DNA from: Eubacteriales bacterium | GTDB lineage: Bacteria; Bacillota; Clostridia; Oscillospirales; CAG-272 | Assembly (NCBI GenBank): GCA_045586845.1 | Contig: JAZNBB010000022.1 | Coordinates: 10,382 to 74,381 of the forward strand | Length of the DNA: 64,000 nt | Direction of reading: 5' to 3' | In this document: one piece after another, positions 30,218-62,407 of the stretch | Layout: each line of letters starts with the position of its first letter | Position numbering within the stretch: the first letter of the stretch is position 1 | Made by a program: the position numbers and the translations under genes | The notes under the pieces: model-generated | Told to the model about the DNA's origin: nothing | Database searches by the model: none | Seen by the model: the letters and a program-made list of their open reading frames with translations, nothing else

Positions 30218-30313
30218 TTTTTGAAAAATACAAAAATTTCGTAAAAAGCGAAACCAAATTCGTTTTTTTCTGTCTGTATGAGTGAACCCCCGAAAAGACA
30301 GGAGGACGCGTAT

Positions 30314-31879
30314 ATGACGAAAATGAGAAAAACTATCACGGGCATAGCGGCGGGCGCAATGGCATTTTTGATGCTTTGCGTCTTTGCAGCTGTGCCTGTT
30401 TCCGCTAACTCAGCACAATCCTATTGGGAGGGTGTGAGCGGGTCAGAAGTGCTGACCACGGACGGAGAATGTCCCTTGGTGGTCGAGCACGAAACGCTGA
30501 CCTTTGATATTGCGGATTTTCCAAGTCCACACGGTAGTATCGAGGCGTACGGTGCCAGCGTGACGGCAGAATATACCTTTTACAATCCAAGTGATATGAC
30601 GGTGATGGCAAATCTGCTGTTTCCGTTTGGGGTCAACCCCTATTATGCCGAGCATTACGATCCTGAAAAGGGAGAATACATCGCGCCCGACAATGTTTCC
30701 AAATACGGTGCGCAGGTGGACGGAACGGCGGTAGAGACGGTCGTGCGCCACAGCTATTGGGATGGTTCGCTCTACAATTTCAACCCTGCCAAAGAAATGG
30801 CAACGCTGTATGACGATTACCGCACCGATGCCTTTTTGACCTACGAGTTGCCTGTGCACGTATACACGTACCGTGCCGAAGGCGTTGATCATCAAGCCTA
30901 CCGTGCCGCAGACGCCGCTACATATATCGGGGATCTGCCCGACGATACGCGCGTGATGCTGCAGAATGCGACCAGGTGGTTCTCCGGAGATGAGGGTGGC
31001 TGGCTTGGCACGTCTGCCTCGTATTCCGAGATCGTGTTTTACGTGTTTGGCAGGGATATTGGCGAGGTGCAGTGGACGGTCTTTGAAAACGGAGGTTTGG
31101 AGCAAGAGATCGAGGGCAGCGTCAAGCTCATTGATAAGCAAAGCACCACCTTTGGCTCTCTTGCCATGCAATTCTACGATCCCGCATCGGGCGTGGCGGC
31201 GCACGACTGGTTCAACGCCGTTGTTGCGCAGCTTGAGGGCTCAGCAAGATTGGAGGGCGGTCTGTATAGCAGCATGTGTGCAAATTGGGATATTTCAAAG
31301 GATTTGCTGCAATGGTATGAGTACAAGATCACGCTCGCGCCGGGCAAGCGGCTGACCAATACGGTCACAGCCCCGCTGTATCCGAACATTGACGGGGATT
31401 TTGTGCCGCATGTTTATTCGTACGAGTATTTTCTCACACCCGCCTCGCTTTGGAAAGAGTTTGGTACGTTGGATATCTATATCAACACGCCGTATTTCAT
31501 GATCAACGAGCGAAAAGGGGAGTACAGCATTGCACCCGACGAATGGGTAAGGACAGATGCCGGCTATGAGCTGCATCTGGACGGATTGCCCACAGAAGAT
31601 CTTGTGTTTTCTCTGTGTGAGTCGGAAGCACCCAAAAGAGAAATGACCGCATGGACGTGGCTTGGCATCTTTTTGATAGCGATTGTGATCGTGTTTGGTT
31701 TGGCGGGCTTGATCGCGGTAGCTCTGTTGATACTTTGCGCTCTGATGCCCATTGTCGGCGTGATCATAGCGGGGTTGTTAGCTGTGATCAGCATCGTGGG
31801 CTTGATCGTTTGGATTGTGCAAAAGCGAAAAAAAGCAAGGCAGGCTCAGGACACAGCAGATCATGAAAAAAACGAATGA
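30314..31879 (+). CDS. Hypothetical secreted protein with a C-terminal multi-TM anchor
   Basis: RBS aggagg 9 nt before the ATG at 30314. Signal peptide ending VPVSA-NS, a ~440-aa extracytoplasmic region with no recognised motif, a ~60-aa hydrophobic C-terminal stretch (2-3 TM helices), then KRKKARQ. Confidence 0.65.
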   Translation: MTKMRKTITGIAAGAMAFLMLCVFAAVPVSANSAQSYWEGVSGSEVLTTDGECPLVVEHETLTFDIADFPSPHGSIEAYGASVTAEYTFYNPSDMTVMANLLFPFGVNPYYAEHYDPEKGEYIAPDNVSKYGAQVDGTAVETVVRHSYWDGSLYNFNPAKEMATLYDDYRTDAFLTYELPVHVYTYRAEGVDHQAYRAADAATYIGDLPDDTRVMLQNATRWFSGDEGGWLGTSASYSEIVFYVFGRDIGEVQWTVFENGGLEQEIEGSVKLIDKQSTTFGSLAMQFYDPASGVAAHDWFNAVVAQLEGSARLEGGLYSSMCANWDISKDLLQWYEYKITLAPGKRLTNTVTAPLYPNIDGDFVPHVYSYEYFLTPASLWKEFGTLDIYINTPYFMINERKGEYSIAPDEWVRTDAGYELHLDGLPTEDLVFSLCESEAPKREMTAWTWLGIFLIAIVIVFGLAGLIAVALLILCALMPIVGVIIAGLLAVISIVGLIVWIVQKRKKARQAQDTADHEKNE

Positions 31880-31886
31880 TTTTTAA

Positions 31887-31912
31887 GGGCGACCCCGCGG
31901 TCGCCCTTTTTT
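31887..31912 (+). terminator. Rho-independent terminator
   Basis: GGGCGACC, loop CCGC, GGTCGCCC, followed by TTTTTT. Confidence 0.8.
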
Positions 31913-31925
31913 GATGCGCCATCCC

Positions 31926-31954
31926 TTGACACACACGCATTTGTATGATACAAT
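31926..31954 (+). promoter_or_regulatory. sigma-A promoter of the first SBP-like lipoprotein gene
   Basis: TTGACA (31926-31931), 17-nt spacer, extended -10 TGaTACAAT (31946-31954). Confidence 0.65.
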
Positions 31955-31999
31955 ATAATGGATTATTTTCCAAGTACCAATGAAAAGAGGAGACTGACT

Positions 32000-33472
32000 A
32001 TGAAAAAGCTGACCATATGGCTGTTGCTGGCGGGTATGCTGCTTTCTGCTCTTGCAGGCTGCGCGCAAGAATCCGACAAGCAAGACAGTGGAACAACTGA
32101 CACACCCGGGCAGGAAGAGGATTATTGGATGAATCCCGACCTCAAGCCGGATAAGGTGGATCTGAAACTCGAGGGAACCGAAGTAGTGATCTTATCGTAC
32201 AACCAGTACGATATCGGTCCCGAAGAGAATTCCTCCGACCCGCTTGAGGATGCTGTTTACAGACGTGACGACAAACTGCAGAATGAGCTTGGTATCAAGT
32301 TCAACAACACATATCAACCTGATTTTTCGCTGATCTCGGAGGCCGTCAAGAACGACATGGCTGCAGGTACGGGCGAGTATCACATTGTATATCAACACAT
32401 GATCGATGCTTCTCGTGCGCTGGCACCGGGGGGGTATTTGTACAACCTGACCGACCTTGATTATGTGGATTTTGACAGAGAGTGGTGGGATCAGGACTGC
32501 AAAAAGGGCTTTATGATCGGCGATAGCATGATGATGGTGTGCGGCGATCTTTTGCCCTCCAGTATGTTGATCACCGCATCGGTGCTGTTCAATAAGAATT
32601 TGTTTGAGACAAACGGCTGGGAGTTTCCCTATGACGATGCAAGAGACGGAAATTGGACCTTGGATGATATGCTGGAGCTGACCAAGGATCAGACCAAGGA
32701 TCTCAACGGTGACGGCTCGATGATTTATTCCGATGACTTTTTCGGTGTGACCTCATGGGCTGCGGATGCCGATTTCAATTTGTTCTACGGCGCCGGTGCC
32801 ACCATGTTTTCCTATGATGAGAACCATTTGCCCGTGTTTGATCCCGACACCGACAGACTGCAGAAGATCTACGATAAGGTCTATGAACTGCTGATCACAC
32901 AAAACGCCTTCCACGTGATATGGGCACAGTATGAAAAGGATCCGAGTATGTATACTGCCACCATTGACGTGTTCCGTGATGGCAGAGCGCTGTTCTTCCC
33001 GACCTACCTGTCCGTGACTACTTTTTTGCGCGATATGGTGGACGATTACGGTATTCTGCCCAATCCCAAATACGATGAATCTCAGGAGGATTATCTGGGC
33101 TTTGTAAACGGCAGTGCCAGTATGGCTTGCGTGCCCAATAGCCTGAGCGAAGAGAATCTCGCAATTGCGGGTTATATGCTGGAGGCACTGACATCCTCGT
33201 CCTATCATATGACGACTGATACGCTGTACGAGGTGGTCGCCAAGTCCAAGAATGCGCGTGACCCCGAATCTGCTGAAATGGTGGATATCATCATTCGTCA
33301 TAAGGTATTTGACTTTGGCTATTCTCATTTTTCAAATGGGGATTGGCCCTGTTGCAACGTCGCGCAGACAGCGCTGCAGAGCAATCAAACCTCTATTGTC
33401 AGGGATATTACAAACTCTGCAAAGAAAACCCGAAAAGAAGTTGATAGGATCGTTGAGGCTTACGGCTACTAA
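32000..33472 (+). CDS. Solute-binding-protein-fold lipoprotein, paralog 1 (large LplA/YtcQ-like family-1 SBP)
   Basis: RBS aagaggag. Signal peptide with lipobox LAGC. Shared blocks SSDPLEDAVYRR, GTGEYH, WWDQDCK, GDLLPS, DLNGDG, DYGILPNPKYDE, VNGSAS, IIRHKVFDFGY. Confidence 0.7.
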   Translation: MKKLTIWLLLAGMLLSALAGCAQESDKQDSGTTDTPGQEEDYWMNPDLKPDKVDLKLEGTEVVILSYNQYDIGPEENSSDPLEDAVYRRDDKLQNELGIKFNNTYQPDFSLISEAVKNDMAAGTGEYHIVYQHMIDASRALAPGGYLYNLTDLDYVDFDREWWDQDCKKGFMIGDSMMMVCGDLLPSSMLITASVLFNKNLFETNGWEFPYDDARDGNWTLDDMLELTKDQTKDLNGDGSMIYSDDFFGVTSWAADADFNLFYGAGATMFSYDENHLPVFDPDTDRLQKIYDKVYELLITQNAFHVIWAQYEKDPSMYTATIDVFRDGRALFFPTYLSVTTFLRDMVDDYGILPNPKYDESQEDYLGFVNGSASMACVPNSLSEENLAIAGYMLEALTSSSYHMTTDTLYEVVAKSKNARDPESAEMVDIIIRHKVFDFGYSHFSNGDWPCCNVAQTALQSNQTSIVRDITNSAKKTRKEVDRIVEAYGY

Positions 33473-33515
33473 GAGACACAGCCTGCATTTTGTTGAATTT
33501 TGATGGGAGATTATT

Positions 33516-35108
33516 ATGCAAGGAATTTACCGAAGTTCAGCTGTTGTTTTGATTTTTGTTTTACTTTTTTCCATGGTTTCCTGCGACTTTGGCAGCCTTG
33601 GCGGCGGCGGATTGGTCGGGGAGCTGTTAGGCTCTGCACAGGATATTTGGGATCCCGATGATCAAGGCAATGGGTCTGATGAGTATTTGACGGATATTGA
33701 ACAGACGTTTGGTCCTTCCGAGGAAGAGCCGACGCAGGACGTTACGGTCGAAGTTGATCATTGGGTCAGCCCCTATCTGCCCGATGTGGATCTTATGGGC
33801 ACCGAGATCAATATTCTCCTTGATTACGCAGATGATGTAGGATTGGAAGAGGCATCCTCTGATCCCCTCGAGGATGCCATCTACAGAAGAAACATCATGA
33901 TCGAGGAGCAGTACGGTGTTGAACTGAATTGGCATATCGAGCAGGATTACATACAAGCGAGAGAGAGGATCAAAAATGATTTTTCCAATGGTGCAGGGGA
34001 GTATCACTTCGCTTTTCATCACATGGTGGACAGCACAGCCAATCTGGCGCTGAGCGGTTGTTTGGTCAACCTGCTCAACGTAGATTATGTTGATTTCAGC
34101 CAAGCATGGTGGGATCAGGACAACTTGAACGGCTTCAGAGTCGGGGATCAGATGTTAATGGCAAGCGGAGATCTTTTACCCTCTACTACGCTGTTGTCTT
34201 CCGCGATCTTCTTTAACAAGAATTTGTTTGACGAGCGTTCTTGGGAATATCCGTACAGTGATGCGGCATCGGGCAGTTGGACCCTGGACGATATGCTGAT
34301 GTTGACCGAGGATCAGGCAATGGATCTCAACGGTGACGGAAAAATGAATTACGCAGAGGATTTCTACGGTTTTGTCGCCTGGTCTTTGGATTGCGATTAC
34401 GGTTTGGCAGGCGGTGCGGGAATGACCATGTTTGAATATGATGGCGATCATCTGCCCGTATACAATGCAAATACCGATAAACTGCAATCGATTTATGATA
34501 AGATTTACAGCCTGGTCGCTTCTCGGGATACATTTCACGTGACTATTGATGACTATCTACTGAATGATGATATGCCTCAAGAACCGTGCAACGTGTTTGC
34601 ATCCGGCAGAGCCTTGTTCTTTGCAAGTTATTTGCGTGAAACGGAAAACCTCCGTTTTAAGATGGAGGACGATTACGGTATTTTGCCTATGCCCAAGTAT
34701 GATGAAGCGCAAGAGCAGTACCGTACCTTTATCAACGGTTCTGCGTCTGTTTTGATCATTCCCAAAAGCGTGAATGATGAACAACTGGACGTTGCAGGTT
34801 ATATGATTGAAGTATTGGCATCCTCCTCTTATTACAATGTCACTAAGACAGCCTTGTATCAAAAACTCGAAAAGTCCCGTACTTTACAGGACTCTGAGAT
34901 GGCAAGGATGGTTGATCTGATCATTCGTCATAAGGTGTTTGATTTCGGCTACACGCACTTTTATATGGACAGCATGGCTTGCGCGACTGTCGTTCAGACC
35001 TCTTTGAACAGTGATAGCCCCTCCATCATCAAGAGCATCACCAAGGACGAACTGAGAACCCTGAAAACTTTGAAGAAGATCTACGAGACTTACGGATACG
35101 ATTACTGA
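33516..35108 (+). CDS. Solute-binding-protein-fold lipoprotein, paralog 2
   Basis: 43 nt after paralog 1 with no terminator, so probably co-transcribed. Lipobox-like MVSC. Carries the same conserved blocks (SSDPLEDAIYRR, GEYH, WWDQD, GDLLPS, DLNGDG, DYGILPMPKYDE, IIRHKVFDFGY). Confidence 0.7.
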   Translation: MQGIYRSSAVVLIFVLLFSMVSCDFGSLGGGGLVGELLGSAQDIWDPDDQGNGSDEYLTDIEQTFGPSEEEPTQDVTVEVDHWVSPYLPDVDLMGTEINILLDYADDVGLEEASSDPLEDAIYRRNIMIEEQYGVELNWHIEQDYIQARERIKNDFSNGAGEYHFAFHHMVDSTANLALSGCLVNLLNVDYVDFSQAWWDQDNLNGFRVGDQMLMASGDLLPSTTLLSSAIFFNKNLFDERSWEYPYSDAASGSWTLDDMLMLTEDQAMDLNGDGKMNYAEDFYGFVAWSLDCDYGLAGGAGMTMFEYDGDHLPVYNANTDKLQSIYDKIYSLVASRDTFHVTIDDYLLNDDMPQEPCNVFASGRALFFASYLRETENLRFKMEDDYGILPMPKYDEAQEQYRTFINGSASVLIIPKSVNDEQLDVAGYMIEVLASSSYYNVTKTALYQKLEKSRTLQDSEMARMVDLIIRHKVFDFGYTHFYMDSMACATVVQTSLNSDSPSIIKSITKDELRTLKTLKKIYETYGYDY

Positions 35109-35119
35109 TGATATACAGA

Positions 35120-35156
35120 GAAGGGGCTGCCCGATCGGGAAGTCCCTTCATCTTTT
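35120..35156 (+). terminator. Probable terminator after paralog 2
   Basis: GAAGGG (35120-35125) pairs with CCCTTC (35144-35149), enclosing an inner CCC/GGG stem. Followed by ATCTTTT. Confidence 0.5.
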
Positions 35157-35209
35157 GTGGAGGTATCGTATTGGTGCAACATGCACAAAAACAGTATGAT
35201 TTTTTCGAC

Positions 35210-35238
35210 TTGACAAACGTTGGGAAATGTGTTACAAT
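35210..35238 (+). promoter_or_regulatory. sigma-A promoter of paralog 3
   Basis: TTGACA (35210-35215), 17-nt spacer, extended -10 TGtTACAAT (35230-35238). Confidence 0.65.
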
Positions 35239-35280
35239 AAGCATGTATGAAAATTTTTATATGAAAGAAGGAACATACTT

Positions 35281-36744
35281 ATGTACAAAAAGCTCTTAGT
35301 TTTGCTTTTGTGCGGCGTGATGCTGATCGGTATGCTTGCCTCTTGTGTTGATGCTAATCCGGATGAGGGCTCTTCCGAATCAAACGAGGAAGAAACCAAC
35401 TGGGTCAGCCCCGACCTTGAGTTCAGCGATGCTTACAAGGGCCAGGAATTGGTCATTCTCACACAGAATGACACCGATATCGGCCCCGAGGAAAACTCCT
35501 CCGACCCGCTTGAGGACGCTGTTTACAGAAGAAACGACATGATCGAAAGCTACTATGGCGTTGAAATCAATGGCGTTTTGGTCGAGAGTTATGAAGAACT
35601 CGGCGAAACCGTCAAGAGAGACGTGACCGCGGGTACCGGTGAGTACCACATCGTTTACCAGCACATGGTAAACAGTGCTACCACCCTTGCACAGGGCGGC
35701 AACCTCTACAAGCTCAATGAGCTTGAGCACGTCAACTTCGACCAGCCTTGGTGGGACCAGGACTGCAAGAACGGCTTTATGATCGGCGACAGCATGCTGC
35801 TCGTATGCGGCGACCTGCTGCCCAGCACCATGATGATCACGGCTGCAGTTATCTTTAACAAGGACCTGTTTGACGAGTACGGCATCGAGTACCCCTACGA
35901 TGATGCAAGAGAAGGCACATGGACCATCGACGATATGCTTGAGATCACCAAGGATCAGACCAAGGATCTCAACGGTGACGGTGGTGTGGATTACCAGAAC
36001 GACTTTTATGGTCTTGTCGGTTGGTCGTTGGACTGCGACTATAACTTCTTCTTTGGCGCAGGCTGCACGCTGTTCAGCTATGACGAGGAACACCTGCCCG
36101 TTTATGATGCCGACACCGACAGATTGCAGACCGTTTACGATAAGATCTATAAGCTGATCGTAACCCAGCAATCTTTCCACGTAACCGTTAACGAGTACCT
36201 TGCAAACGCAGGTATGGTCTCCGAGCCCAGCAACGTATTCAAGGCAGGCAGAGCATTGATGTATGCAAGCTACCTGTCCGGTGCAGTCGGTCTGCGTGAT
36301 ATGGAGAAGGATTACGGTATTCTGCCCCAGCCCAAGTACGATGAAACGCAGGAAGATTACCTGAGCTTTGTAAACGGTTCCGCATCGGTTGTAGTCGTTC
36401 CCAAGAGCCTTACCACAGAGAATCTGGATATGGCAGGCTATATGATGGAGGTTCTGGCTTCTTCCTCTTATTACACGGTAACCGATACCCTGTATGAAAA
36501 GGTAGCAAAGTCCAAGACCGCACGTGACCCCGAATCCGCAGAGATGGTGGATATCATCATCCGTCACAAGGTATTCGATTTCGGTTATACCCACTTCCAT
36601 AATGATGGCTTGGCTTGCGCGAGCATCATTCAGACCGCTTTGAACAGCAAGAGCCCCTCTATTGTCAAGACCATTACCCAGGACAAAACTCGTACCGAGA
36701 AAGCTTTGAAGAAGGTCTACGAAGCCTACGGCTACGAATATTGA
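35281..36744 (+). CDS. Solute-binding-protein-fold lipoprotein, paralog 3
   Basis: Lipobox LASC. Closest to paralog 1, sharing an identical 35-nt stretch (35947-35981 = 32681-32715). Uses more G/C-ending codons than the other paralogs. Confidence 0.7.
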   Translation: MYKKLLVLLLCGVMLIGMLASCVDANPDEGSSESNEEETNWVSPDLEFSDAYKGQELVILTQNDTDIGPEENSSDPLEDAVYRRNDMIESYYGVEINGVLVESYEELGETVKRDVTAGTGEYHIVYQHMVNSATTLAQGGNLYKLNELEHVNFDQPWWDQDCKNGFMIGDSMLLVCGDLLPSTMMITAAVIFNKDLFDEYGIEYPYDDAREGTWTIDDMLEITKDQTKDLNGDGGVDYQNDFYGLVGWSLDCDYNFFFGAGCTLFSYDEEHLPVYDADTDRLQTVYDKIYKLIVTQQSFHVTVNEYLANAGMVSEPSNVFKAGRALMYASYLSGAVGLRDMEKDYGILPQPKYDETQEDYLSFVNGSASVVVVPKSLTTENLDMAGYMMEVLASSSYYTVTDTLYEKVAKSKTARDPESAEMVDIIIRHKVFDFGYTHFHNDGLACASIIQTALNSKSPSIVKTITQDKTRTEKALKKVYEAYGYEY

Positions 36745-36764
36745 TCTCTGATCAAAAAATATTT

Positions 36765-36792
36765 AGGGCTGCCCACATGGGCAGCCCTTTTT
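36765..36792 (+). terminator. Rho-independent terminator after paralog 3
   Basis: AGGGCTGCCC, loop ACAT, GGGCAGCCCT, followed by TTTT. Confidence 0.8.
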
Positions 36793-36814
36793 GTGCTTGC
36801 GCTTGACCAAAGTA

Positions 36815-36844
36815 TTGACAAAGTGTCCACATATGTGCTAAAAT
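36815..36844 (+). promoter_or_regulatory. sigma-A promoter of paralog 4
   Basis: TTGACA (36815-36820), 18-nt spacer, extended -10 TGcTAAAAT (36836-36844). Confidence 0.6.
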
Positions 36845-36876
36845 AAAAACAGAAGTCCCGAAGGGAGGATCATATC

Positions 36877-38412
36877 ATGAAAAAGAGAATATTTGCTGCG
36901 TTGGTGTGCTTGGCATTGGTCTGCTCCTTTGCCGCTTGCGATATGGAGTTTGGCGGTCTTGTGGGTGAACTGTTGGGCGATTTGAATCTGCCCACTGATA
37001 TCGAAGGCAGACCTCTGCCCGATGAAATACTGTCCGATTGGGCGGAGAGCGGAACTATGCCTGCCGAAACGTGGTGGGATGAAGAGACTGTTTACGATGA
37101 AACGGTTGCCCCCAATGACAGACCGGATTTTCAGTATTCATACCGCTTGTACGAGAATCAGACCTTGACCGTGCTGGGTCAGAATACGATCGATCTTGGA
37201 CTTGATGAGTTCTCGGAAAATGCTTTGGAGAGCAGTAGCTATCAGCGTAATCAGCGCATGGAGAAAGTTTTTGGTATTCATGTGGAAACTCTGATGGCGG
37301 AGAGTGGCGAACTTGAAGCGCTTGTCAAAAACGATGTTGTTTCCGGAACGAGAGATTTTGATGTTGTTATGGGCGATATGGCAGACACAGGCGCCTCGCT
37401 TGCACAAAGCAGTGTATTGCTCAATCTGTACGACCTGCCGTATCTGGATCTTTCAACCACGAGCTGGGATGCAAGCGTCAATGAAGGCTTGGCAATTGGC
37501 AACTACCTGCCCATGGCAACGGGCGTTGTTACGCCCACTGCCTATTTGCATACATCTTTGATCTTAAACAATAAGCCAATAGCCGATAATTGCGGAATTG
37601 ACGTCTATGATTACGTGCGGACCGGTGGCTGGACGATTGATAAGATGAACGCCATGGCAGAGCTTTGTTACACGGATCTGAACGGAGATGCCCGTATCGA
37701 TCAAGAAGATGTCTTGGGCTTAGTTGCTACATATGACTGTGCAAACGCATTTGCAGTTGCAACCGATACCATGCTGATTGCGAAAGATGCGGATAATATG
37801 CCTGTGCTCAATACGGATGGAATGGACCGTTTGGCGGCTGCATATGAAAGCGTCTATAACCTGCTGTTTGCTAACGGTGTGTTGTATTTTTCCTCGATGC
37901 AAGATGCGCCGGGATCGGGTGCTGCAAAATCTGTTTTTGAGCAAGGCAACACGATGTTTTATGCTACCACCGTTCAAGATGCGATGCAGGTCAATGATAT
38001 GAATGTACAGATGGGCATTCTGCCTTTCCCGAAGCTGAACGAAGAACAGGAAAGCTATCGTTCTTACGTCAATTGTAGTTCAACCGCCGTGATGGTTCCC
38101 ATTGATGTTGATAAGGATTTTGTAGGATATGTGCTGGAGGCACTGGTGTACGCAACCGACGATGCGTACACGATCACCGTATCGAACAGACTTGTCAGGA
38201 GTGAACAGGATCAGGAAATGCTGGACCTTGTGCTGGAAGGCAAGACCCTGGATTTTGGCAGCAACTATCTGTTGACTGCTACGGGCGGGACGGTGCAGTG
38301 CTTCAAAATTGCCCTTGAGCAGAAGAATCCCACGATCATGAGCTTGTATAAGCAGTACCAAAAGGTGTTGAGCAAGTATTTGGAACAGATGGTTGACTCT
38401 ATTCCGAGCTGA
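36877..38412 (+). CDS. Solute-binding-protein-fold lipoprotein, divergent paralog 4
   Basis: Lipobox FAAC. Same length class and collinear weaker matches (DLNGDA, MGILPFPK, shared GGLVGELLG after the lipobox Cys). RBS gggagg. Confidence 0.6.
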   Translation: MKKRIFAALVCLALVCSFAACDMEFGGLVGELLGDLNLPTDIEGRPLPDEILSDWAESGTMPAETWWDEETVYDETVAPNDRPDFQYSYRLYENQTLTVLGQNTIDLGLDEFSENALESSSYQRNQRMEKVFGIHVETLMAESGELEALVKNDVVSGTRDFDVVMGDMADTGASLAQSSVLLNLYDLPYLDLSTTSWDASVNEGLAIGNYLPMATGVVTPTAYLHTSLILNNKPIADNCGIDVYDYVRTGGWTIDKMNAMAELCYTDLNGDARIDQEDVLGLVATYDCANAFAVATDTMLIAKDADNMPVLNTDGMDRLAAAYESVYNLLFANGVLYFSSMQDAPGSGAAKSVFEQGNTMFYATTVQDAMQVNDMNVQMGILPFPKLNEEQESYRSYVNCSSTAVMVPIDVDKDFVGYVLEALVYATDDAYTITVSNRLVRSEQDQEMLDLVLEGKTLDFGSNYLLTATGGTVQCFKIALEQKNPTIMSLYKQYQKVLSKYLEQMVDSIPS

Positions 38413-38422
38413 AATAAAATGA

Positions 38423-38460
38423 CAAAGGGCTGCTCGCTTGTCGAGCAGCCCTTTGTTTTA
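38423..38460 (+). terminator. Rho-independent terminator after paralog 4
   Basis: 14-bp stem CAAAGGGCTGCTCG (38423-38436) pairs with CGAGCAGCCCTTTG (38442-38455). Followed by TTTTA. Confidence 0.75.
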
Positions 38461-38534
38461 TCTGCATTTGATGTGACGAATATCACTTTCTGTGCATATT
38501 GTGGCAGAATTTACAATTCCGGGGTGACAAAGTA

Positions 38535-38563
38535 TTTACAATATGACAAAAATATGGTATAAT
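38535..38563 (+). promoter_or_regulatory. sigma-A promoter of the CotH/RCC1 gene
   Basis: TTTACA (38535-38540), 17-nt spacer, extended -10 TGgTATAAT (38555-38563). Confidence 0.6.
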
Positions 38564-38624
38564 TAGAGATCGATAAAGAAGATGATAGCTTATGATATAA
38601 ATTCGTTTTGTAAGGAGGATATCC

Positions 38625-41600
38625 ATGAAACACAGAATATCCCTCAAAGCCGTTTTTTCGCTGCTTTTAGCACTGATTTTGCTGATGGGTATGCTGGCTG
38701 CATGTCGGTCCGATAAGCCATCTGACAGCACCGCCGAGGATGATACACAGGATCCCGAACAAACCACCGCGCCCGACCAAGAGGAGATTACACAGCCGGG
38801 AGGAGAGGAGCAAACCACGGGTGACGAGCTCCTGCAGCCCGATGATCCAACTTACGAGGTCGCCAAGAATTTCAAGGACGTGCTGATCAGTGCAGTCTAC
38901 GGAACGGGGCAAAATAAAGATGCTGCGGTAGGGCATGGTTTTATTCAGTTATATAACACGGGTACTGAGAGCGTGTCTTTGTCGGATGCTGCGCTTTATT
39001 ACCGCGAGGATGCCAATGATGACTACAGACAATTTGCGTTTGCAGATGATGCAAGCATAGCTCCGGGCGGATATTATTTGATCCGTATGCAGGCAGCAAG
39101 AGAAAAGAACGGCGAGGCGTATGACGAAAGCTTTGCTGTACTTGCTGTTGAGTCGTTTGATGCCGAATGGGCAGTCATCCTTGACAATAAGGATATTCAA
39201 CTTTCACTTGCCCCCGCAGGGCAGGAGGTAAGCCGGGATACCGCCGTGGAAGAAATCAACGGTACCGTCTCGTATTTTGTTGCCGCCGAGCTTGGCTATA
39301 GCAGTCATTTTGCCGTGGATAATATGTCCAAGAGCAAGGTGGCGGTGCGCACCGCACTCAAGCATTACAGTGGCTTCCACAAGGTCAATCTGAATGAATC
39401 CACGACCGCGCAGTTGGAAAAGGTTTGCCCCAAGAGCGGGGCGGGCGACAATACTGTGGTCGGCTCACGCGTCAGCGAGGTACTGTTCTCGGCTGATGCG
39501 GGCATTTATGCGCAGGGCTTTTGGCTGGAATTGCGTGCCAAGGACGGATATAAGATATATTACACCACTGATGGTTCCGATCCCAAGGTGCACGGTACGG
39601 AATATACCGCTTCCATTCCTTTGGCAGATTCCTCTTCGGTTGCCCCGGGCGCAACCATCAAGGGTGCGGCTTCTGCTATGGGCAGCGATTACGGCGCAAG
39701 AAGCGATACGTTGCCGGGAGGCTATGTGATCAAGGCATATGCCACCAACGGTACGGACTCTACCGACGTCTTTACCAATACGTACTTTATTTCCGATACC
39801 TTTTACGAATATGGTGTGACTATGATGTCACTTTCCATGGATAAGAATCTGATCTATGGAAATGAGGGCTTCTACAACCACTATTACGGTACAGGAGACC
39901 AGAAAAATCAGCGACAGACGGGAATGCTTGAGGTTTTTTCGGCGGACGGTCAGCGTCACGGCAGCTCTTACGTGGAGCTTGCCATCAGCGGACACGGCTC
40001 CTCGGGCTGGGCAATGAAGTCGATGCGCGTGTATTATAAGAGCGCTAACAACACCGCCGTGGGTACGGACGGAGATCTTAATTACGATCTGTTTGGCGGC
40101 TACGCCCGCGATGATAACGGCTATGCCATCACCGATTTCTCGCGTCTTTTATTGCGTAACTCGGGCAACGACTGTATGGATTCCTTTATCCGTGACGCGT
40201 ATATGCAGCGCGTTTGCAAGGATATGGACGTGTATACCATGGCATACGTACCTGTGTTGATGTTTATCAACGGAGAGTTCTGGGGTGTTTACAACGCGCG
40301 TGAGCGTTACAGTCCCGAATACGTGGAATCCCACACAGGAGCAGATAAGGCAAATATTGCTATCATAGAGAGCGATTACGACGGATTGGTACTTGAGGGC
40401 AACGGAAATGCGCCCTTTATCCCCATGGAGTCTACGCAAGCGGATGCCGATGAGTTTAATGCTATCGTAAAATATATCCGTACGCATGATCTGTCGGTCG
40501 AGGAGCATTATCAGTACGTAGCGGAGCGTATTGATATCAATTCCTTTATGGATATGTACGTTGCGCGCCTGTTCTTCAATGCACGCGACTGGCCCGAAAA
40601 CAATATCAAGGTGTTTAAAAACCGTGTGGAGGGTGATCTCTCGGGTACGGATACCAAGTGGTATTTTACGCTGTTGGATATGGATATGGGTATCGCCATG
40701 TATCCCGAGGGGCACTGGGCGGATACCTCGGAAAAAGCCAACTTTTTTGGTTGGATCGACTCAACCGGTACCGTCGTAGGTACCATTATGCATGGACTGT
40801 GCAAGAACCAAGGCTTCAAGCAGACATTCATCTCTCGCTTTGCGTATGTGGTGGATCAGATCCTGACGCCCGAAAATCTGAAAGCCGAGCTTGATACAAT
40901 GGTGGCAGAGCGCGAGCCGCTGGTCGAGCTGCAGAAAATGCGCTGGGGTGCATCCGAGTCGCAGTACCGCACGTCGATCGATAATATGTATAAGTTTATC
41001 CAAGGCAGAGAGCAGTACGTCATCCCCATGCTGTGCTCTTATTTCGGCATTTCACCCGAGGATCTGCAGATCGGCACCGAAAAAAAGGTGGTGGTCAGCT
41101 TCAATTCCGAGCGCGCGAGCGTCACTTTTAACGGCGAAGCCGTGTCCGAGTCGGGCACAGAATACGTATTTGAGGTCGATCCGAACAAACAAAGTGTGAC
41201 TTTTGAGATTGCTGCAACTGCCAAAGAGGGGTACAGTATTGCTTCGATTATGTTTATGCCTTCTGTGGGCGAGGTCCAAACGGTGCAAGGCGATCAGGCA
41301 GAGTTTACCGTTACGTCGTCCGGTACGGTAGTGGTCAACACCAAATCCAATGGCGCGCAGTCTCCCGTGGCAGGCGTACAGAGCGGGATTACTGCAAGCG
41401 CACATTCATCGTATTATCTGACCGAGACGGGTGACCTGTATGCCTGGGGAATGAACAAAAATGGTATTTTGGGCATTCCGGGTAACAGCAGCGTATCAGT
41501 GCCCACGCTGGTGGCGTCTGGGGTTGCCAAGGTGGAGGTTTGCCACAGCAACGATGCTGAGAATAATAACAATGATACCATGATGGCGTATCTGACATTG

Positions 41601-42416
41601 GACGGCGAGCTTTACACAGTTGGCTGCAACAGTGCAGGACAGCTTGGCAGAAACGGCACGACAACTGATGACCGAGTCGGACTTGTGAAGTTTGATAAAA
41701 AGATCAAGGACATCAGCGTCGGGCATGACCACTTGCTGGTGCTTGATGAGGAAGGTGTACTATGGGGTGTTGGTTCCAATACTTACGGGCAACTTGGCAA
41801 AAGCAACGATGGCGGTACTACCACTAAATTTCAGATGGTAGCAAGTGGTGTCAAGCTGATCGCGGCGGGACGCAGAAATACGTTCTATACCGACGCAAAT
41901 AACACTTGTTACGTGCTTGGTGATAACCGCTGGCAGAAGTTTGGAAAGGATGCGGAAAAGTATAGCACACCGCATCAGCTGCTCAAGAACGTGACGTATA
42001 TGTCCACGGGAGAGCATCAGGTCGTGATGGTGACTGCAAACGGTGATTTGTATTATGCAGGTTGGCGTACCCTTAATGGCTGGGGACAAGGTCAGGGCGC
42101 AGGCGGCGCGGTCAAGCTGACAAGCAGCGTCAAAAAGGCGGTGTTGCATCATAGCAATATGCTGATTCTCAAGACCGATGGCTCGGTTTGGGGCTATGGA
42201 AACAATATGGGCGGTGCCATGGGCAGCGTCAGCGCAACCTCGGGTACGCCGGGCAAGATCATTTCAAGCGGCGTAGCGGATATTGCGTCCGGCTACCAGT
42301 TCAGTATGTTCTTGCATCAGGATGGCAGCATCAAGGTTCAGGGTGACAATGCGCACGGTCAGGCAGGTAATGGCAAGACCGGCGGCAGTGCCAATATGGC
42401 GCAGGCACTCTTCTAA
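38625..42416 (+). CDS. Large lipoprotein: lamin-tail domain + CotH atypical kinase domain + RCC1-like beta-propeller
   Basis: RBS aaggagg and lipobox LAAC. LTD-like segment (VLISAVYGTG...GFIQLYNTGTESVSLSDAALYY). IYYTTDGSDP module. CotH-like core (LLLRNSGNDCMDSFIRDAYM...VLMFINGEFWGVYNARERY...ARDWPENNIKVFKN...YFTLLDMDMG). Seven C-terminal repeats with the xxGxNxxGQLG pattern. Confidence 0.75.
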   Translation: MKHRISLKAVFSLLLALILLMGMLAACRSDKPSDSTAEDDTQDPEQTTAPDQEEITQPGGEEQTTGDELLQPDDPTYEVAKNFKDVLISAVYGTGQNKDAAVGHGFIQLYNTGTESVSLSDAALYYREDANDDYRQFAFADDASIAPGGYYLIRMQAAREKNGEAYDESFAVLAVESFDAEWAVILDNKDIQLSLAPAGQEVSRDTAVEEINGTVSYFVAAELGYSSHFAVDNMSKSKVAVRTALKHYSGFHKVNLNESTTAQLEKVCPKSGAGDNTVVGSRVSEVLFSADAGIYAQGFWLELRAKDGYKIYYTTDGSDPKVHGTEYTASIPLADSSSVAPGATIKGAASAMGSDYGARSDTLPGGYVIKAYATNGTDSTDVFTNTYFISDTFYEYGVTMMSLSMDKNLIYGNEGFYNHYYGTGDQKNQRQTGMLEVFSADGQRHGSSYVELAISGHGSSGWAMKSMRVYYKSANNTAVGTDGDLNYDLFGGYARDDNGYAITDFSRLLLRNSGNDCMDSFIRDAYMQRVCKDMDVYTMAYVPVLMFINGEFWGVYNARERYSPEYVESHTGADKANIAIIESDYDGLVLEGNGNAPFIPMESTQADADEFNAIVKYIRTHDLSVEEHYQYVAERIDINSFMDMYVARLFFNARDWPENNIKVFKNRVEGDLSGTDTKWYFTLLDMDMGIAMYPEGHWADTSEKANFFGWIDSTGTVVGTIMHGLCKNQGFKQTFISRFAYVVDQILTPENLKAELDTMVAEREPLVELQKMRWGASESQYRTSIDNMYKFIQGREQYVIPMLCSYFGISPEDLQIGTEKKVVVSFNSERASVTFNGEAVSESGTEYVFEVDPNKQSVTFEIAATAKEGYSIASIMFMPSVGEVQTVQGDQAEFTVTSSGTVVVNTKSNGAQSPVAGVQSGITASAHSSYYLTETGDLYAWGMNKNGILGIPGNSSVSVPTLVASGVAKVEVCHSNDAENNNNDTMMAYLTLDGELYTVGCNSAGQLGRNGTTTDDRVGLVKFDKKIKDISVGHDHLLVLDEEGVLWGVGSNTYGQLGKSNDGGTTTKFQMVASGVKLIAAGRRNTFYTDANNTCYVLGDNRWQKFGKDAEKYSTPHQLLKNVTYMSTGEHQVVMVTANGDLYYAGWRTLNGWGQGQGAGGAVKLTSSVKKAVLHHSNMLILKTDGSVWGYGNNMGGAMGSVSATSGTPGKIISSGVADIASGYQFSMFLHQDGSIKVQGDNAHGQAGNGKTGGSANMAQALF

Positions 42417-42420
42417 ATCA

Positions 42421-42449
42421 AAAAATCCTTGCAATCGCAAGGATTTTTT
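42421..42449. terminator. Symmetric (bidirectional-type) terminator after the CotH/RCC1 gene
   Basis: AAAAATCCTTGC, loop AATC, GCAAGGATTTTT. The A-run and T-run flank an 8-bp GC-containing stem. Confidence 0.8.
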
Positions 42450-42592
42450 GATTTAACAGCGTCTTTAGGCGTAATATCATTGCGCGAAGCACAAAAATTT
42501 TCGCTCCGGCTATCAATCTGCCCCGAATCTTTCACGCTTGGTTCATAATTGTATGCTATAATGCGCACAATACGTCAAGAGAGAGAAACATC

Positions 42593-43051
42593 ATGTCTAA
42601 ATTTCAGGAAAAGATTTATCAATTCATGTACGGTCGCTACGGCACGGACAGGCTGAACCGTGTGCTGTCGGTCGCATCGTTGGTTATTTTGGCGGTGTCG
42701 CTCCCCGTGTCATGGATATGGGGCAGAACCTTGCCCGGCATCATCGTATCGCTCGTTTTGTATACCGGGTCGCTTGGTATCTGCATCTGGGCTACCGCGC
42801 GCACCTTTTCGAGAAAGATCTGCAAAAGGCAGGCGGAAAACGCTAAATGGGTAGCGTTTGAATACAAGCTGCGCTGCCTGTTCCGCAGACACAACGGTAA
42901 TAAAGACACCGATACGCACGTATTCCGCGACTGCCCCAAGTGTAAGGCGACTCTGCGCCTACCACGGCAGCAGGGAAAGCATACCGTGCGCTGTCCGCGC
43001 TGCGCAAAGACCTTCACCGTTCGCGTCAGAGCACCGAAAAAGAGAAAATAA
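42593..43051 (+). CDS. Small membrane protein with a C-terminal zinc ribbon
   Basis: 152 aa. Two predicted TM helices, then CPKC...(15 aa)...CPRC and a basic tail KKRK. Confidence 0.6.
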   Translation: MSKFQEKIYQFMYGRYGTDRLNRVLSVASLVILAVSLPVSWIWGRTLPGIIVSLVLYTGSLGICIWATARTFSRKICKRQAENAKWVAFEYKLRCLFRRHNGNKDTDTHVFRDCPKCKATLRLPRQQGKHTVRCPRCAKTFTVRVRAPKKRK

Positions 43052-47414: not shown

Positions 47415-48014
47415 ATGAACTTCAAAAAGGTAATCAATACCATAGGCGATTTCTTTAAAAAAATGGGCAAGCGCAATCTGATCATTGCCGGCGCGGTCAT
47501 CATGATCGGTCTGGCGGTATACGTTAACTGGATCATTTTTGCGGGAGACAACAAGGACGACTCGTTTAACTATGATCAAAGTGCAGGCATGAACACTAAC
47601 TACGGCACCACGCTCGGCACGGGTTCGAGCACGGGGAACACGGGCAGCACCGCCACCGATTCCGCGTCCTACTTCAGCAGCGTGCAGGTCTCCAGGCAAA
47701 AGGCACGCGACGAGGCACTTGAGGTGCTCAATTCTGTCGTAGACAACGACAACGCTACCGACCAGGTCAAGGCAGAGGCAGTTGCCGAGATCAGACAGAT
47801 CGCCGCCGAGATGGAAAACGAGGCAAAGATCGAGTCGCTGATCAAGACCAAGGGGTATGCGCAGTGCGTGGCTGTTATCAGCGGTGAGAACGTCAGCATC
47901 GTGGTGCAGCACGAGGGTGAACTCAGCGCAGCGGCACTTGCGCAGATCAATGCCATCGTCTACGAACAGACCGGTATTGCACCTGCAGGTATCAGTATTA
48001 TTGCAAAAAGTTAA
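47415..48014 (+). CDS. spoIIIAH: Stage III sporulation protein AH
   Basis: 199 aa with an N-terminal TM helix, then SVQVSRQKARDEALEVL and a YscJ/FliF-like C-terminal segment. Confidence 0.8.
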   Translation: MNFKKVINTIGDFFKKMGKRNLIIAGAVIMIGLAVYVNWIIFAGDNKDDSFNYDQSAGMNTNYGTTLGTGSSTGNTGSTATDSASYFSSVQVSRQKARDEALEVLNSVVDNDNATDQVKAEAVAEIRQIAAEMENEAKIESLIKTKGYAQCVAVISGENVSIVVQHEGELSAAALAQINAIVYEQTGIAPAGISIIAKS

Positions 48015-48030
48015 TATAGGGGCAAACAAG

Positions 48031-48063
48031 CCGCCCGATGAGGTGTCATCGGGCGGTATTTTT
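48031..48063 (+). terminator. Rho-independent terminator after the spoIIIA operon
   Basis: 11-bp stem CCGCCCGATGA with TCATCGGGCGG, loop GGTG, followed by TATTTTT. Confidence 0.8.
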
Positions 48064-48105
48064 GCATACAATGGCAATAAAATTACAGAATTGAGAGGTC
48101 CTTGT

Positions 48106-49182
48106 ATGCAAGAAAACAGCAAACAGATCTATTTTGCATCTGCCAACTCAGCGCACGGCTTTGTCAGCTATTTCGAGCAGTGCTTCACCCATGAACGCAT
48201 CTCGCGTCTGTATATGATCAAGGGCGGACCGGGCACGGGCAAGAGCCGCTTTATCGGTGATGTAGCGCACAGGGCGATCGAGCAGGGCTGGCGCGCCGAG
48301 TTTTATGCTTGCTCCTCCGATCCGGGGTCGCTTGATGGCGTCATACTGACCCATCCGCGCCTTGGCTGTATCGCACTTGCCGATGCCACACCGCCTCATG
48401 TCATGGAGCCTACGCTGCCCGGTGTGCGTGACGTGATCGTCAATCTCGGTGACTTTTGGGACCGCGAAAAGCTTGCCAAAAACGCAAGCCGTATCCGCAC
48501 ATTGGGCAAATATAAGCAAGCCTGTTTTGATCGCAGCTACCAATACTTGCAAGCGGCGGGGAAGCTGCTTGGGGTACGTGATGAGGTGATTACACCATGC
48601 GTGGATGAAGATCGGTTAATGCGGCTTGCTGTCAAGCTCTCTCGCCTGTATTCCAAGGGGCGCGATTTCGAAGAACGGATCGGGCTTTCGGATAGCATTG
48701 GTATGCGGGGGAGGGTGCATTTTGATACCTACGAAAGAGAAGCGGATCGGGTAGTGGTGTTGTTACCCTTTTACGGTGTGGAGTATACGCTTATGGACGC
48801 ACTTTACCGAATGATACGCGAGCGCGCTTGCGTTGTGCATCGCGCACCGCACGTGCTTTTTTCGGATAAGACCGCTGCGCTGTATTTCCCCGATAACCGC
48901 CTGTGTATCACAGCAACTCAGGTACAAACCACTGCGGGTCAGGATGTACAACGGATCGATCTGCGTAGAATTTGCAATGCAGATTTGCTGCGCGGTGTAA
49001 GGGGGGAGGCACGGCTTGCGCAAAAGCTTGCAGACAGTGCAATCGATGCTGCTGCCGAAAGCTTTGCGCGCGCAGGCGAGTATCATTTCGAGTTGGAAAG
49101 CCTTTACACGGATGCGATGGATTTTGAAGCCAAGGAGCATTTTACTGCGACCTTTAGCAATACAATTTTACAAAATCCTTGA
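48106..49182 (+). CDS. Uncharacterised P-loop NTPase
   Basis: Walker A KGGPGTGKS near the N-terminus. The ATG at 48106 lies downstream of the spoIIIA terminator. The track start at 47857 would overlap spoIIIAH. Confidence 0.7.
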   Translation: MQENSKQIYFASANSAHGFVSYFEQCFTHERISRLYMIKGGPGTGKSRFIGDVAHRAIEQGWRAEFYACSSDPGSLDGVILTHPRLGCIALADATPPHVMEPTLPGVRDVIVNLGDFWDREKLAKNASRIRTLGKYKQACFDRSYQYLQAAGKLLGVRDEVITPCVDEDRLMRLAVKLSRLYSKGRDFEERIGLSDSIGMRGRVHFDTYEREADRVVVLLPFYGVEYTLMDALYRMIRERACVVHRAPHVLFSDKTAALYFPDNRLCITATQVQTTAGQDVQRIDLRRICNADLLRGVRGEARLAQKLADSAIDAAAESFARAGEYHFELESLYTDAMDFEAKEHFTATFSNTILQNP

Positions 49183-62353: not shown

Positions 62354-62407
62354 AAAGTATTATCATGGGAGAATATGGGGACCTGTCAATCCCTGCGGAG
62401 GTATCAT

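Follow-up and report, generated by a model that had tools for sequence, protein, structure and literature searches.

Genes for family-1 sugar-type solute-binding proteins (SBPs) are normally followed by a pair of BPD_transp_1 permease genes, in most cases within one operon. Orphan OppA/Ali receptors, by comparison, are thought to share a translocator encoded elsewhere. For the orphan Bug receptors of the tripartite tricarboxylate transporter (TTT) class, which number up to 181 in Bordetella with at most four membrane systems, a shared translocator has been proposed, the alternative being that the receptors serve something other than transport (PMC5994714). Here we analyzed a 64,000-nucleotide stretch of an Eubacteriales bacterium genome (the window; assembly GCA_045586845.1, contig JAZNBB010000022.1, positions 10,382 to 74,381), in which four tandem SBP genes (SBP1–SBP4) are followed by a gene for a large lipoprotein with CotH and RCC1 domains (CotH/RCC1). 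No sampled relative of these SBPs was encoded in an operon with permeases. What is new is a lineage-specific orphan-receptor expansion, known in kind, that affects MalE-like lipoproteins of gut Clostridia.

The window had previously been described from its letters alone in a first-pass annotation, which reported five consecutive same-strand genes with lipobox signals. The open reading frames (ORFs) and their leaders were confirmed: all five lie on the + strand and encode a hydrophobic leader that runs up to a lipobox-type Cys, with an atypical Met at −3 in the MVSC of SBP2. In window coordinates, the genes are:

32000..33472, +, SBP1, 490-aa MalE-fold lipoprotein, lipobox LAGC; 58% identical to SBP3; SBP_bac_8 at 30 bits
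33516..35108, +, SBP2, 530-aa paralog with a long linker, lipobox MVSC; 56% identical to SBP3
35281..36744, +, SBP3, 487-aa MalE-fold lipoprotein, lipobox LASC; SBP_bac_8 at 40.8 bits, SBP_bac_1 at 30.2 bits
36877..38412, +, SBP4, 511-aa divergent member, lipobox FAAC; full-length identity to SBP3 30%
38625..42416, +, CotH/RCC1 lipoprotein, 1263 aa, lipobox LAAC; LTD, CHB_HEX_C/Fn3_assoc, CotH kinase fold, linker, RCC1 propeller

All four SBPs could be aligned with one another over their full length. Against the Pfam family SBP_bac_8 (cut-off 27 bits), SBP1 and SBP3 scored above the cut-off, SBP4 scored below it with 17 bits, and SBP2 gave no match. The AlphaFold2 (AF2) model of SBP3, based on 54 homologs, had a mean predicted local distance difference test (pLDDT) score of 88.7 and a predicted template modeling (pTM) score of 0.85. 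Comparison of this model with the PDB by Foldseek returned 874 matches at E ≤ 1e-3 with MalE-type carbohydrate receptors on top, the best of which (E ~1e-13) were Lmo0181, T. maritima MalE1-3, a cyclo/maltodextrin-binding protein and AbnE. A PDB sequence search with SBP3 gave a marginal AbnE match alone (E = 0.019), and NCBIfam had no matches to the five lipoproteins. The predicted model thus confirms a bilobed class-II SBP fold for SBP3, yet the family is far from any solved structure. The SBP fold named in the first-pass annotation is borne out by the Pfam matches to SBP_bac_8 and SBP_bac_1, the model and the Foldseek result. Its narrower assignment to the LplA/YtcQ group was not supported: there was no DUF3502 match at E ≤ 0.01, no LplB/LplC-type permeases were found nearby, and a profile of the family found only 9,987 cluster representatives at E ≤ 1e-3. 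B. subtilis LplA/YtcQ resemble the window SBPs in their length of ~500 aa, lipoprotein nature and DxNGDG loop, but the window SBPs form a separate subfamily.

Common sequence blocks had been reported for all four paralogs. This held for SBP1–SBP3, which are 56–59% identical and in which the blocks are intact, but not for SBP4 (30% identity), in which they are degraded to SENALESSSYQR, SWDAS, DLNGDA, GILPFPKLNE and LDFGS. The DNA repeats of the first three copies have a period of ~1.63 kb and an identity of only 62–74%, and SBP1–SBP3 therefore stem from old duplications. A GGLVGELLG motif just past the lipobox Cys, followed by a longer linker, occurs in SBP2 (33516–33650) and SBP4 (36877–36990); a motif resembling it was seen in an SBP-like gene of a related locus (L018, 8292–9737; L numbers denote the retrieved loci).

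Relatives were collected by a scan of one genome per GTDB species, from which 80 loci in 53 assemblies (27–83% identity) were kept. The neighborhood sample comprised family members with two scan peptide patterns, viewed in contig windows of ±10 kb. All SBP3 homologs came from uncultured Clostridia, and the GTDB species genomes contained at least 508 relatives. At E ≤ 1e-30, the family profile matched at least 4,533 cluster representatives (clusters at 50% identity), almost all with a length of 480–530 aa. The 80 loci contained 173 family genes, with 2–6 copies in 44 of the loci, and one metagenome-assembled genome had up to 11 family genes in just two retrieved loci. A recognizable lipobox was present in 168 of 174 full-length family members.

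Not one of the 173 family genes in these 80 loci and 53 assemblies was found in an operon with permeases. Among the transmembrane-rich ORFs of all fetched loci, only six matched BPD_transp_1. An iterated permease search located permease pairs of carbohydrate uptake transporter 1 (CUT1) type within 10 kb of family genes in two loci only (L055 and L072), where they lay 3–9 kb off and on the opposite strand. The pair in L055 belongs to a canonical operon in which the two permeases are accompanied by an ATPase and by a 530-aa SBP of their own that differs from the family. The remaining permeases were short (212–236 aa) and of another type. When 107 ORFs next to family genes in distant loci were scanned with Pfam, neither BPD_transp_1 nor CotH was among the families listed. 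Within the 64-kb window, a permease profile built from the fetched loci had no matches, and no permease, ATP-binding cassette (ABC) ATPase, two-component or glycosidase (GH) gene was present among the ORFs annotated by Pfam, an annotated set to which ORFs that were unscanned or without a family, including 1994–2830, 47857–49182 and 62375–63805, do not belong. The absence of these gene classes from the window, as given in the first-pass annotation, therefore holds for all annotated ORFs, and its observation that the SBPs have no permease partner nearby extends to every family locus sampled. It had also asked whether homologous arrays adjoin permeases elsewhere; in none of the sampled loci does a family gene stand in a permease operon. 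These data support orphan status as a trait of all sampled family loci and not of this window alone.

The transcription signals of the locus were then compared with the sigma-A consensus. Four promoter sites, 35–60 nt upstream of SBP1, SBP3, SBP4 and the CotH/RCC1 gene, agree with TTGACA-N17/18-TATAAT in 11 of its 12 positions, and each has a TG-extended −10. Across the whole window, 13 such sites were observed versus 0.62 expected, and several of the other nine stand just 5' of other ORFs (among them those at 231, 13980 (infC), 49251 and 60481 (rny)). Because of this excess and of these positions, the signal is meaningful in the host. The promoters and terminators are:

31885..31908, +, hairpin terminator of the upstream 533-aa gene; 10-bp stem, 7 GC pairs, T-run
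31926..31954, +, sigma-A-type promoter of the SBP1–SBP2 unit; TTGACA-17-TACAAT, TG
35120..35149, +, imperfect hairpin and T-run 3' of SBP2; from sequence reading, missed by the automatic scan
35210..35238, +, sigma-A-type promoter of SBP3; TTGACA-17-TACAAT, TG
36765..36788, +, hairpin terminator 3' of SBP3; from the automatic scan
36815..36844, +, sigma-A-type promoter of SBP4; TTGACA-18-TAAAAT, TG
38422..38456, +, palindromic 15-bp hairpin terminator 3' of SBP4; reported on the − strand by the scan, the stem being symmetric
38535..38563, +, sigma-A-type promoter of the CotH/RCC1 gene; TTTACA-17-TATAAT, TG
42420..42449, +, hairpin terminator 3' of the CotH/RCC1 gene; from sequence reading

The start of SBP1 was placed at the ATG at 32000 and not at the ATG at 31958, because the promoter at 31926–31954 excludes the upstream ATG. 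The 43-nt gap between SBP1 and SBP2 contains a ribosome-binding site but no promoter or terminator, and SBP2 is probably co-transcribed with SBP1. Based on this layout, the transcription units are SBP1–SBP2, SBP3, SBP4 and CotH/RCC1, in agreement with the bicistronic first pair and the separate, strong units proposed earlier. Judged by their consensus, the SBP and CotH/RCC1 promoters would be read by the vegetative sigma factor and not by sporulation sigma factors. A GGGCTGCyC core is common to the terminator hairpins of SBP2, SBP3 and SBP4 (35120–35149, 36765–36788 and 38422–38456), and these cores are consistent with duplication of gene plus terminator as whole units. A search of the window for catabolite-responsive elements (cre) gave 15 matches versus ~8 expected, none in the locus promoters, which is no evidence for or against sugar control.

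The genes around family members in other loci were mostly related to sugar catabolism or AraC-type regulation. The 107-ORF Pfam scan listed AraC regulators (5), PBP5-type carboxypeptidases (4), FAD oxidoreductases (3), GH123, GH28, GH36, DUF2961, nucleoside hydrolases, xylose-isomerase-type TIM barrels and GFO/IDH/MocA oxidoreductases, and further loci contributed aldose epimerase, ROK, FGGY, glycyl-radical enzymes, GH106-like and LnbX-like proteins. On a contig of Candidatus Flemingibacterium merdigallinarum (L027, 8591–12959), a MalK/MsmK-type ATPase gene (ABC_tran, OB_MalK and TOBE_2 domains) stands directly 5' of two family genes, with no permease gene beside it, and in L020 a MalK-type ATPase gene lies 4.7 kb from a family SBP. 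Other ABC ATPases near family genes were rejected as partners, as they belong to exporters (FtsX, ABC-2), to a metal importer (ABC-3) or to separate operons.

Taken with modest confidence, the explanation we favor is that SBP1–SBP4 form a birth-and-death tandem array of a very large subfamily of MalE-fold (family-1, sugar-type) lipoproteins of gut Clostridia, expressed independently of one another and acting as receptors that capture glycans for an ABC translocator encoded at another locus. Strong vegetative promoters would drive expression of the SBPs, and each protein would be exported, lipid-anchored via its lipobox Cys and kept off the membrane by an acidic linker. The SBP would then capture a carbohydrate ligand at the cell surface and hand it to a CUT1-type ABC translocator (two permeases and a MalK/MsmK-type ATPase) that is encoded elsewhere and common to many receptors. 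The CotH/RCC1 protein would be a separate surface protein, placed beside the array through lineage-specific synteny. We infer both the binding of sugars by SBP1–SBP4 and the delivery to a distant shared permease. Since matching membrane subunits were absent from the operons of all sampled family genes, a translocator encoded elsewhere is the most likely recipient of the ligand, and because the neighbors are mostly sugar-catabolic or AraC genes and the fold is that of a sugar receptor, carbohydrate capture combined with a distant CUT1 system is the most economical account.

Several observations weigh against this explanation. No cognate permease for SBP1–SBP4 was identified within the contig windows, and a sugar-type SBP family that is nowhere in the sample linked to permeases is unusual and may use none. 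The identity of SBP3 to the solved SBPs matched by Foldseek is only 12–15%. Moreover, SSDPLEDAIYRR, WWDQD and IIRxKVFDFGY are nearly invariant among the old paralogs, which would be odd if these blocks lined a diversifying ligand pocket. Finally, the adjacency to MalK-type genes (two loci, L020 and L027) is not above a rough chance estimate.

Compared with MalE-like CUT1 receptors (Listeria Lmo0181, Thermotoga MalE1-3, Geobacillus AbnE), the family has the same bilobed class-II fold with SBP_bac_8/SBP_bac_1 matches and a similar lipobox anchor with a polar linker, and many of its loci have carbohydrate-catabolic neighbors. It differs in its low sequence identity to them, in length (~490 versus ~400 aa), in being without the two BPD_transp_1 permeases in the sample, and in its tandem arrays of independently transcribed genes. 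The large number of paralogs unlinked from membrane components and the duplication-driven lineage expansion are as in the Bug/TTT receptors (TctC-like; Bordetella, Rhodoplanes) and in orphan OppA/AliA/AliB, a likeness to Bug/TTT that is drawn here from contig windows. A shared translocator and sensing, both proposed for the Bug/TTT receptors (PMC5994714), may apply to the present family as well. In contrast to the Bug/TTT receptors, the family has a MalE-like and not a TctC-like fold, is of ABC and not TTT class, and consists of Gram-positive lipoproteins that are probably sugar-binding.

The CotH/RCC1 protein was analyzed separately. Its Pfam domains are LTD (residues 83–188), CHB_HEX_C/Fn3_assoc (292–387) and CotH (497–799; PF08757, 127.8 bits versus a cut-off of 23.8), and an RCC1 propeller extends from residue 918 towards the C-terminus (WD40_RLD at 151.6 bits plus RCC1 and RCC1_2 repeats), with UVR8 (E = 1e-22) and HERC2 as PDB matches. 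More than 100 homologs have the full architecture at 45–83% identity. The motifs ARDWPENN and LLDMDMG, invariant in 13 homologs, resemble catalytic-loop and DFG-like metal-binding motifs; a PDB profile search with the CotH domain returned nothing. The CotH of B. subtilis is a cytoplasmic coat protein of the mother cell and is not exported. A role as cytoplasmic spore-coat kinase would not fit the window protein, in view of its predicted lipoprotein signal (MLAAC) and the sigma-A-type promoter of its gene, and the protein thus differs from B. subtilis CotH in its putative location. Both, as well as clostridial CotH, have a CotH kinase-fold domain, and the invariant Asp/Asn/Asp motifs of the window protein may correspond to catalytic residues; in B. 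subtilis CotH the catalytic D228 and the metal-binding D251 are essential (PMC7821199). In the C. thermocellum cellulosome, extracellular CotH, LTD-LTD-Fn3-CotH and (RCC1)5 proteins have been described as components (PMC6083626). These proteins (CseP, Cthe_0239 and Cthe_0258, respectively) have the modules and the extracytoplasmic site of the window protein, which differs from them in carrying all modules in one 1263-aa chain and a lipobox anchor instead of a dockerin. Judged by its domains and leader, the CotH/RCC1 protein is a fused, lipid-anchored variant of already known extracellular CotH proteins, and the most suitable view of it is as a surface protein in its own right, either an enzyme or a binding protein.

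Adjacency of SBP array and CotH/RCC1 gene was assessed by searching the loci with six-frame hidden Markov models (HMMs) instead of longest-ORF gene calling. The two occurred together in the same order in L001, L014, L016, L017, L022, L023, L030 and L098, and the adjacency was limited to loci whose identity to the window was no less than 69% for the SBP or was 88% for the CotH domain. The close SBP3 homologs of L014, L016, L017, L022, L023 and L030 (at least 70% identity) have the same flanking genes, and L001 (SBP3 homolog 69%) shows the order rsfS, three 520–530-aa genes, five SBPs, a 1268-aa CotH/RCC1 gene, a small gene and spoIIIAA. At lower identity, SBP3-like genes were found in other contexts without CotH/RCC1, both at 64–68% (L019–L021) and at ~50% (L005, L008, L024, L025 and L035). 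None of the 69 SBP loci below ~65% identity had CotH/RCC1 nearby; L039 has an unrelated 614-aa CotH-domain gene 5.5 kb off on the other strand. The converse search gave a similar picture. CotH/RCC1 homologs of 45–48% identity adjoin no SBP and lie beside GH2/lipase and V-ATPase genes in L009, or, in L011–L013, near spoVAC, with a ~915-aa GH106-like gene on one side and unrelated genes on the other. When metagenomes were scanned with the CotH domain, 59 loci were obtained, with SBP-like genes directly upstream only in L098, and ~40 further CotH/RCC1 homologs (43–57% identity) had a family SBP only in L132, 2.1 kb off and on the opposite strand. Within the syntenic relatives, the SBP-like gene adjoining CotH was 36–43% identical where the CotH protein was 71–83% identical, and 21–26% in L098, where the CotH domain was 88% identical. 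SBP2 had no ortholog above 60% identity in any relative, and SBP1-like and SBP3-like genes varied from 1 to 2 copies. Judging from these alignments, the SBP4 position of the array evolves fast and is the least conserved part of the locus.

The first-pass annotation had suggested that the SBPs are ligand-capturing partners, scaffolds or substrates of the CotH/RCC1 protein, which would make the set one envelope system. We regard this as very unlikely. It could appeal to the same-order adjacency in at least eight related genomes or contigs, to the divergent SBP-like gene that always stands directly 5' of the CotH gene in syntenic relatives, and to the GH106-like gene, whose neighbor is a family SBP in certain genomes and CotH/RCC1 in certain others. 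However, those eight share the whole rsfS...spoIIIA synteny, the gene-neighborhood comparison did not find the adjacency beyond such closely related, fully syntenic genomes, and it was missing from the 69 more distant SBP loci and, apart from L132, from the ~40 further CotH/RCC1 homologs. The SBP gene next to CotH is moreover the least conserved (21–43% versus 71–88% for CotH), and there is no common transcript, promoters and terminators being separate. Because the adjacency is clade-limited, the SBP4 position is the least conserved and the transcription signals are separate, common descent of a syntenic block suffices to explain it, and the literature yielded neither a described SBP+CotH system nor a report of such an SBP expansion in Oscillospiraceae. 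A sporulation set with its site of action in the intermembrane space of the forespore or in the layers of the spore, also suggested earlier, seems to us the least probable reading. The genes stand directly upstream of spoIIIAA-AH, CotH/RCC1 occurs near spoVAC in L011–L013, and CotH is a known spore-coat kinase in Bacillus (PMC7821199). This reading is weakened by the four near-consensus sigma-A promoters, whose extended −10 type is the same as at infC and rny, by the lipoprotein signal as opposed to the unexported CotH of B. subtilis, by the sugar-catabolic contexts of family SBPs elsewhere, and by the extracellular CotH, LTD-Fn3-CotH and RCC1 proteins of the vegetative C. thermocellum cellulosome (PMC6083626).

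A more credible alternative, which we nevertheless hold to be unlikely, concerns transport itself: the SBP fold may have been recruited as a transport-independent, lipid-anchored surface module for glycan binding, adhesion or sensing that never docks on an ABC permease. Such a module would retain polysaccharide, or glycans of host or diet, on the cell, or would signal their presence to a sensor. The lack of any family gene in a permease operon among roughly 85 sampled loci is what this would predict, and the monocistronic units with strong promoters would suit it, as would the quick copy-number turnover and the fast divergence of the SBP4-like position, as for exposed surface proteins. Motif blocks that are nearly invariant among old paralogs are compatible with exposed non-transport proteins, and some loci lie next to genes for very large surface proteins or next to a pilus operon (L005, L025 and L035). 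There is also precedent in the non-transport role proposed for orphan TTT SBPs (PMC5994714) and in documented SBP-based signaling (PMC8050422). On the other hand, no sensor kinase, chemoreceptor or signaling partner recurs among the neighbors listed, the cytoplasmic sugar-catabolic enzymes and AraC regulators imply that the ligand enters the cell, and canonical CUT1 systems in the same genomes could serve orphan receptors. In its boldest form, thousands of MalE-fold lipoproteins would be wholly uncoupled from ABC permeases, either as a surface layer for glycan capture and recognition or by docking on a non-ABC membrane partner (the co-amplified 533-aa protein described below being a candidate), with arrays diversifying fast under ligand or host/phage pressure; we consider this speculative and doubtful.

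Sugar-type SBPs are normally used for annotating ABC transporters and for inferring the diet of gut bacteria. The present family numbers at least 4,500 clusters (50% identity) in uncultured Clostridia of rumen and gut; none of the members sampled is encoded together with a transporter, and the genes are often in tandem and strongly promoted. If the favored explanation of receptors feeding shared permeases is true, the substrate range would depend on a repertoire of receptors that escapes annotation based on operons. If, instead, no permease is used, the SBP fold would have a second, non-transport life on Gram-positive surfaces. In either case, the tempting link between sugar-type receptors and an extracellular CotH kinase-fold protein is removed as unsupported.

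The five lipoprotein genes are part of a block of seven same-strand (+) genes (30278–43051) between a housekeeping run (rdgB-like, yhbY-like, nadD, yqeK and rsfS) and the spoIIIA operon, a position given in the first-pass annotation and confirmed by gene annotation. The other two genes of the block are:

30278..31879, +, 533-aa secreted protein, beta-rich, membrane helix at the C-terminus; start of homolog P0241 at Met13
42593..43051, +, zinc-ribbon membrane protein, 152 aa; C-terminal CxxC...CxxC, weak zinc-ribbon matches

The 533-aa gene is the first of the block inserted between rsfS and spoIIIA. Its product has no Pfam or NCBIfam family but at least 339 homologs, and in relatives 1–4 tandem copies stand directly 5' of SBP arrays (L001, 1456–6716; L015, 457–5130; L016, 1975–6594; L023, 509–6686). 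The AF2 model (pLDDT 86) has a beta-rich ectodomain and a long C-terminal membrane helix, and the sole, weak fold match was the Legionella lpg2210 'putative nutrient binding protein' (4g2a, E = 1.4e-5). As an obligate SBP partner the protein was rejected, since a 40%-identical homolog follows an HU gene with no SBP nearby and the link is clade-limited. The 152-aa zinc-ribbon protein is kept between CotH/RCC1 and spoIIIAA in L001, L014, L016 and L017.

Pfam assignments among 30 other window ORFs were housekeeping or sporulation only: acyl-CoA ligase, pseudouridine synthase, PBP5-type carboxypeptidase, ScpA/B, LysA, EngB, Lon, IF3, rRNA methylase, DprA, TopA, TrmFO, RNase III, SMC, FtsY, MiaB, MutS, MutL, Tgt, HAD, TldD/PmbA and RNase Y. 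PADLOC defense models had no matches. The GC content was 0.47–0.49 over 32–40 kb (the SBP/CotH block) versus 0.53–0.55 in the flanking housekeeping and spoIIIA genes, which suggests that the block is a compositionally distinct, dynamic insertion. A 406-aa antisense ORF (35380–36600, −) overlaps a real gene and is a composition artefact, as are antisense ORFs of 1,300–1,500 aa over the CotH/RCC1 genes in L011 and L013.

Further features were noted in the related loci. A calcineurin-like phosphoesterase (Metallophos) gene, absent from the window, lies inside the SBP array of several relatives (L015, 11468–12349; L016, 11546–12364; L017, 7561–8388; L018, 7325–8206; L023, 13242–14336). The ~915-aa GH106-like protein (L011, 6958–9756; L013, 7030–9780; L044, 3–1301; L056, 3–1616) has a weak NCBIfam match to the BT4145 alpha-L-rhamnosidase, a jelly-roll domain and an N-terminal PFWSWN motif; its gene is directly 5' of CotH/RCC1 in two genomes, and 5' of and overlapping a family SBP in two others. 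In L005 (1–12993; GCA_017452945.1), two family SBP genes stand between leuS, which comes after them, and a type-IV-pilus-like operon (prepilin peptidase, N_methyl pilins) together with the gene for a Flg_new_2 surface protein of 1300 aa, which come before them. In L025 and L035, ORFs of ~1,300 aa upstream of the SBP occupy the position of this surface-protein gene.

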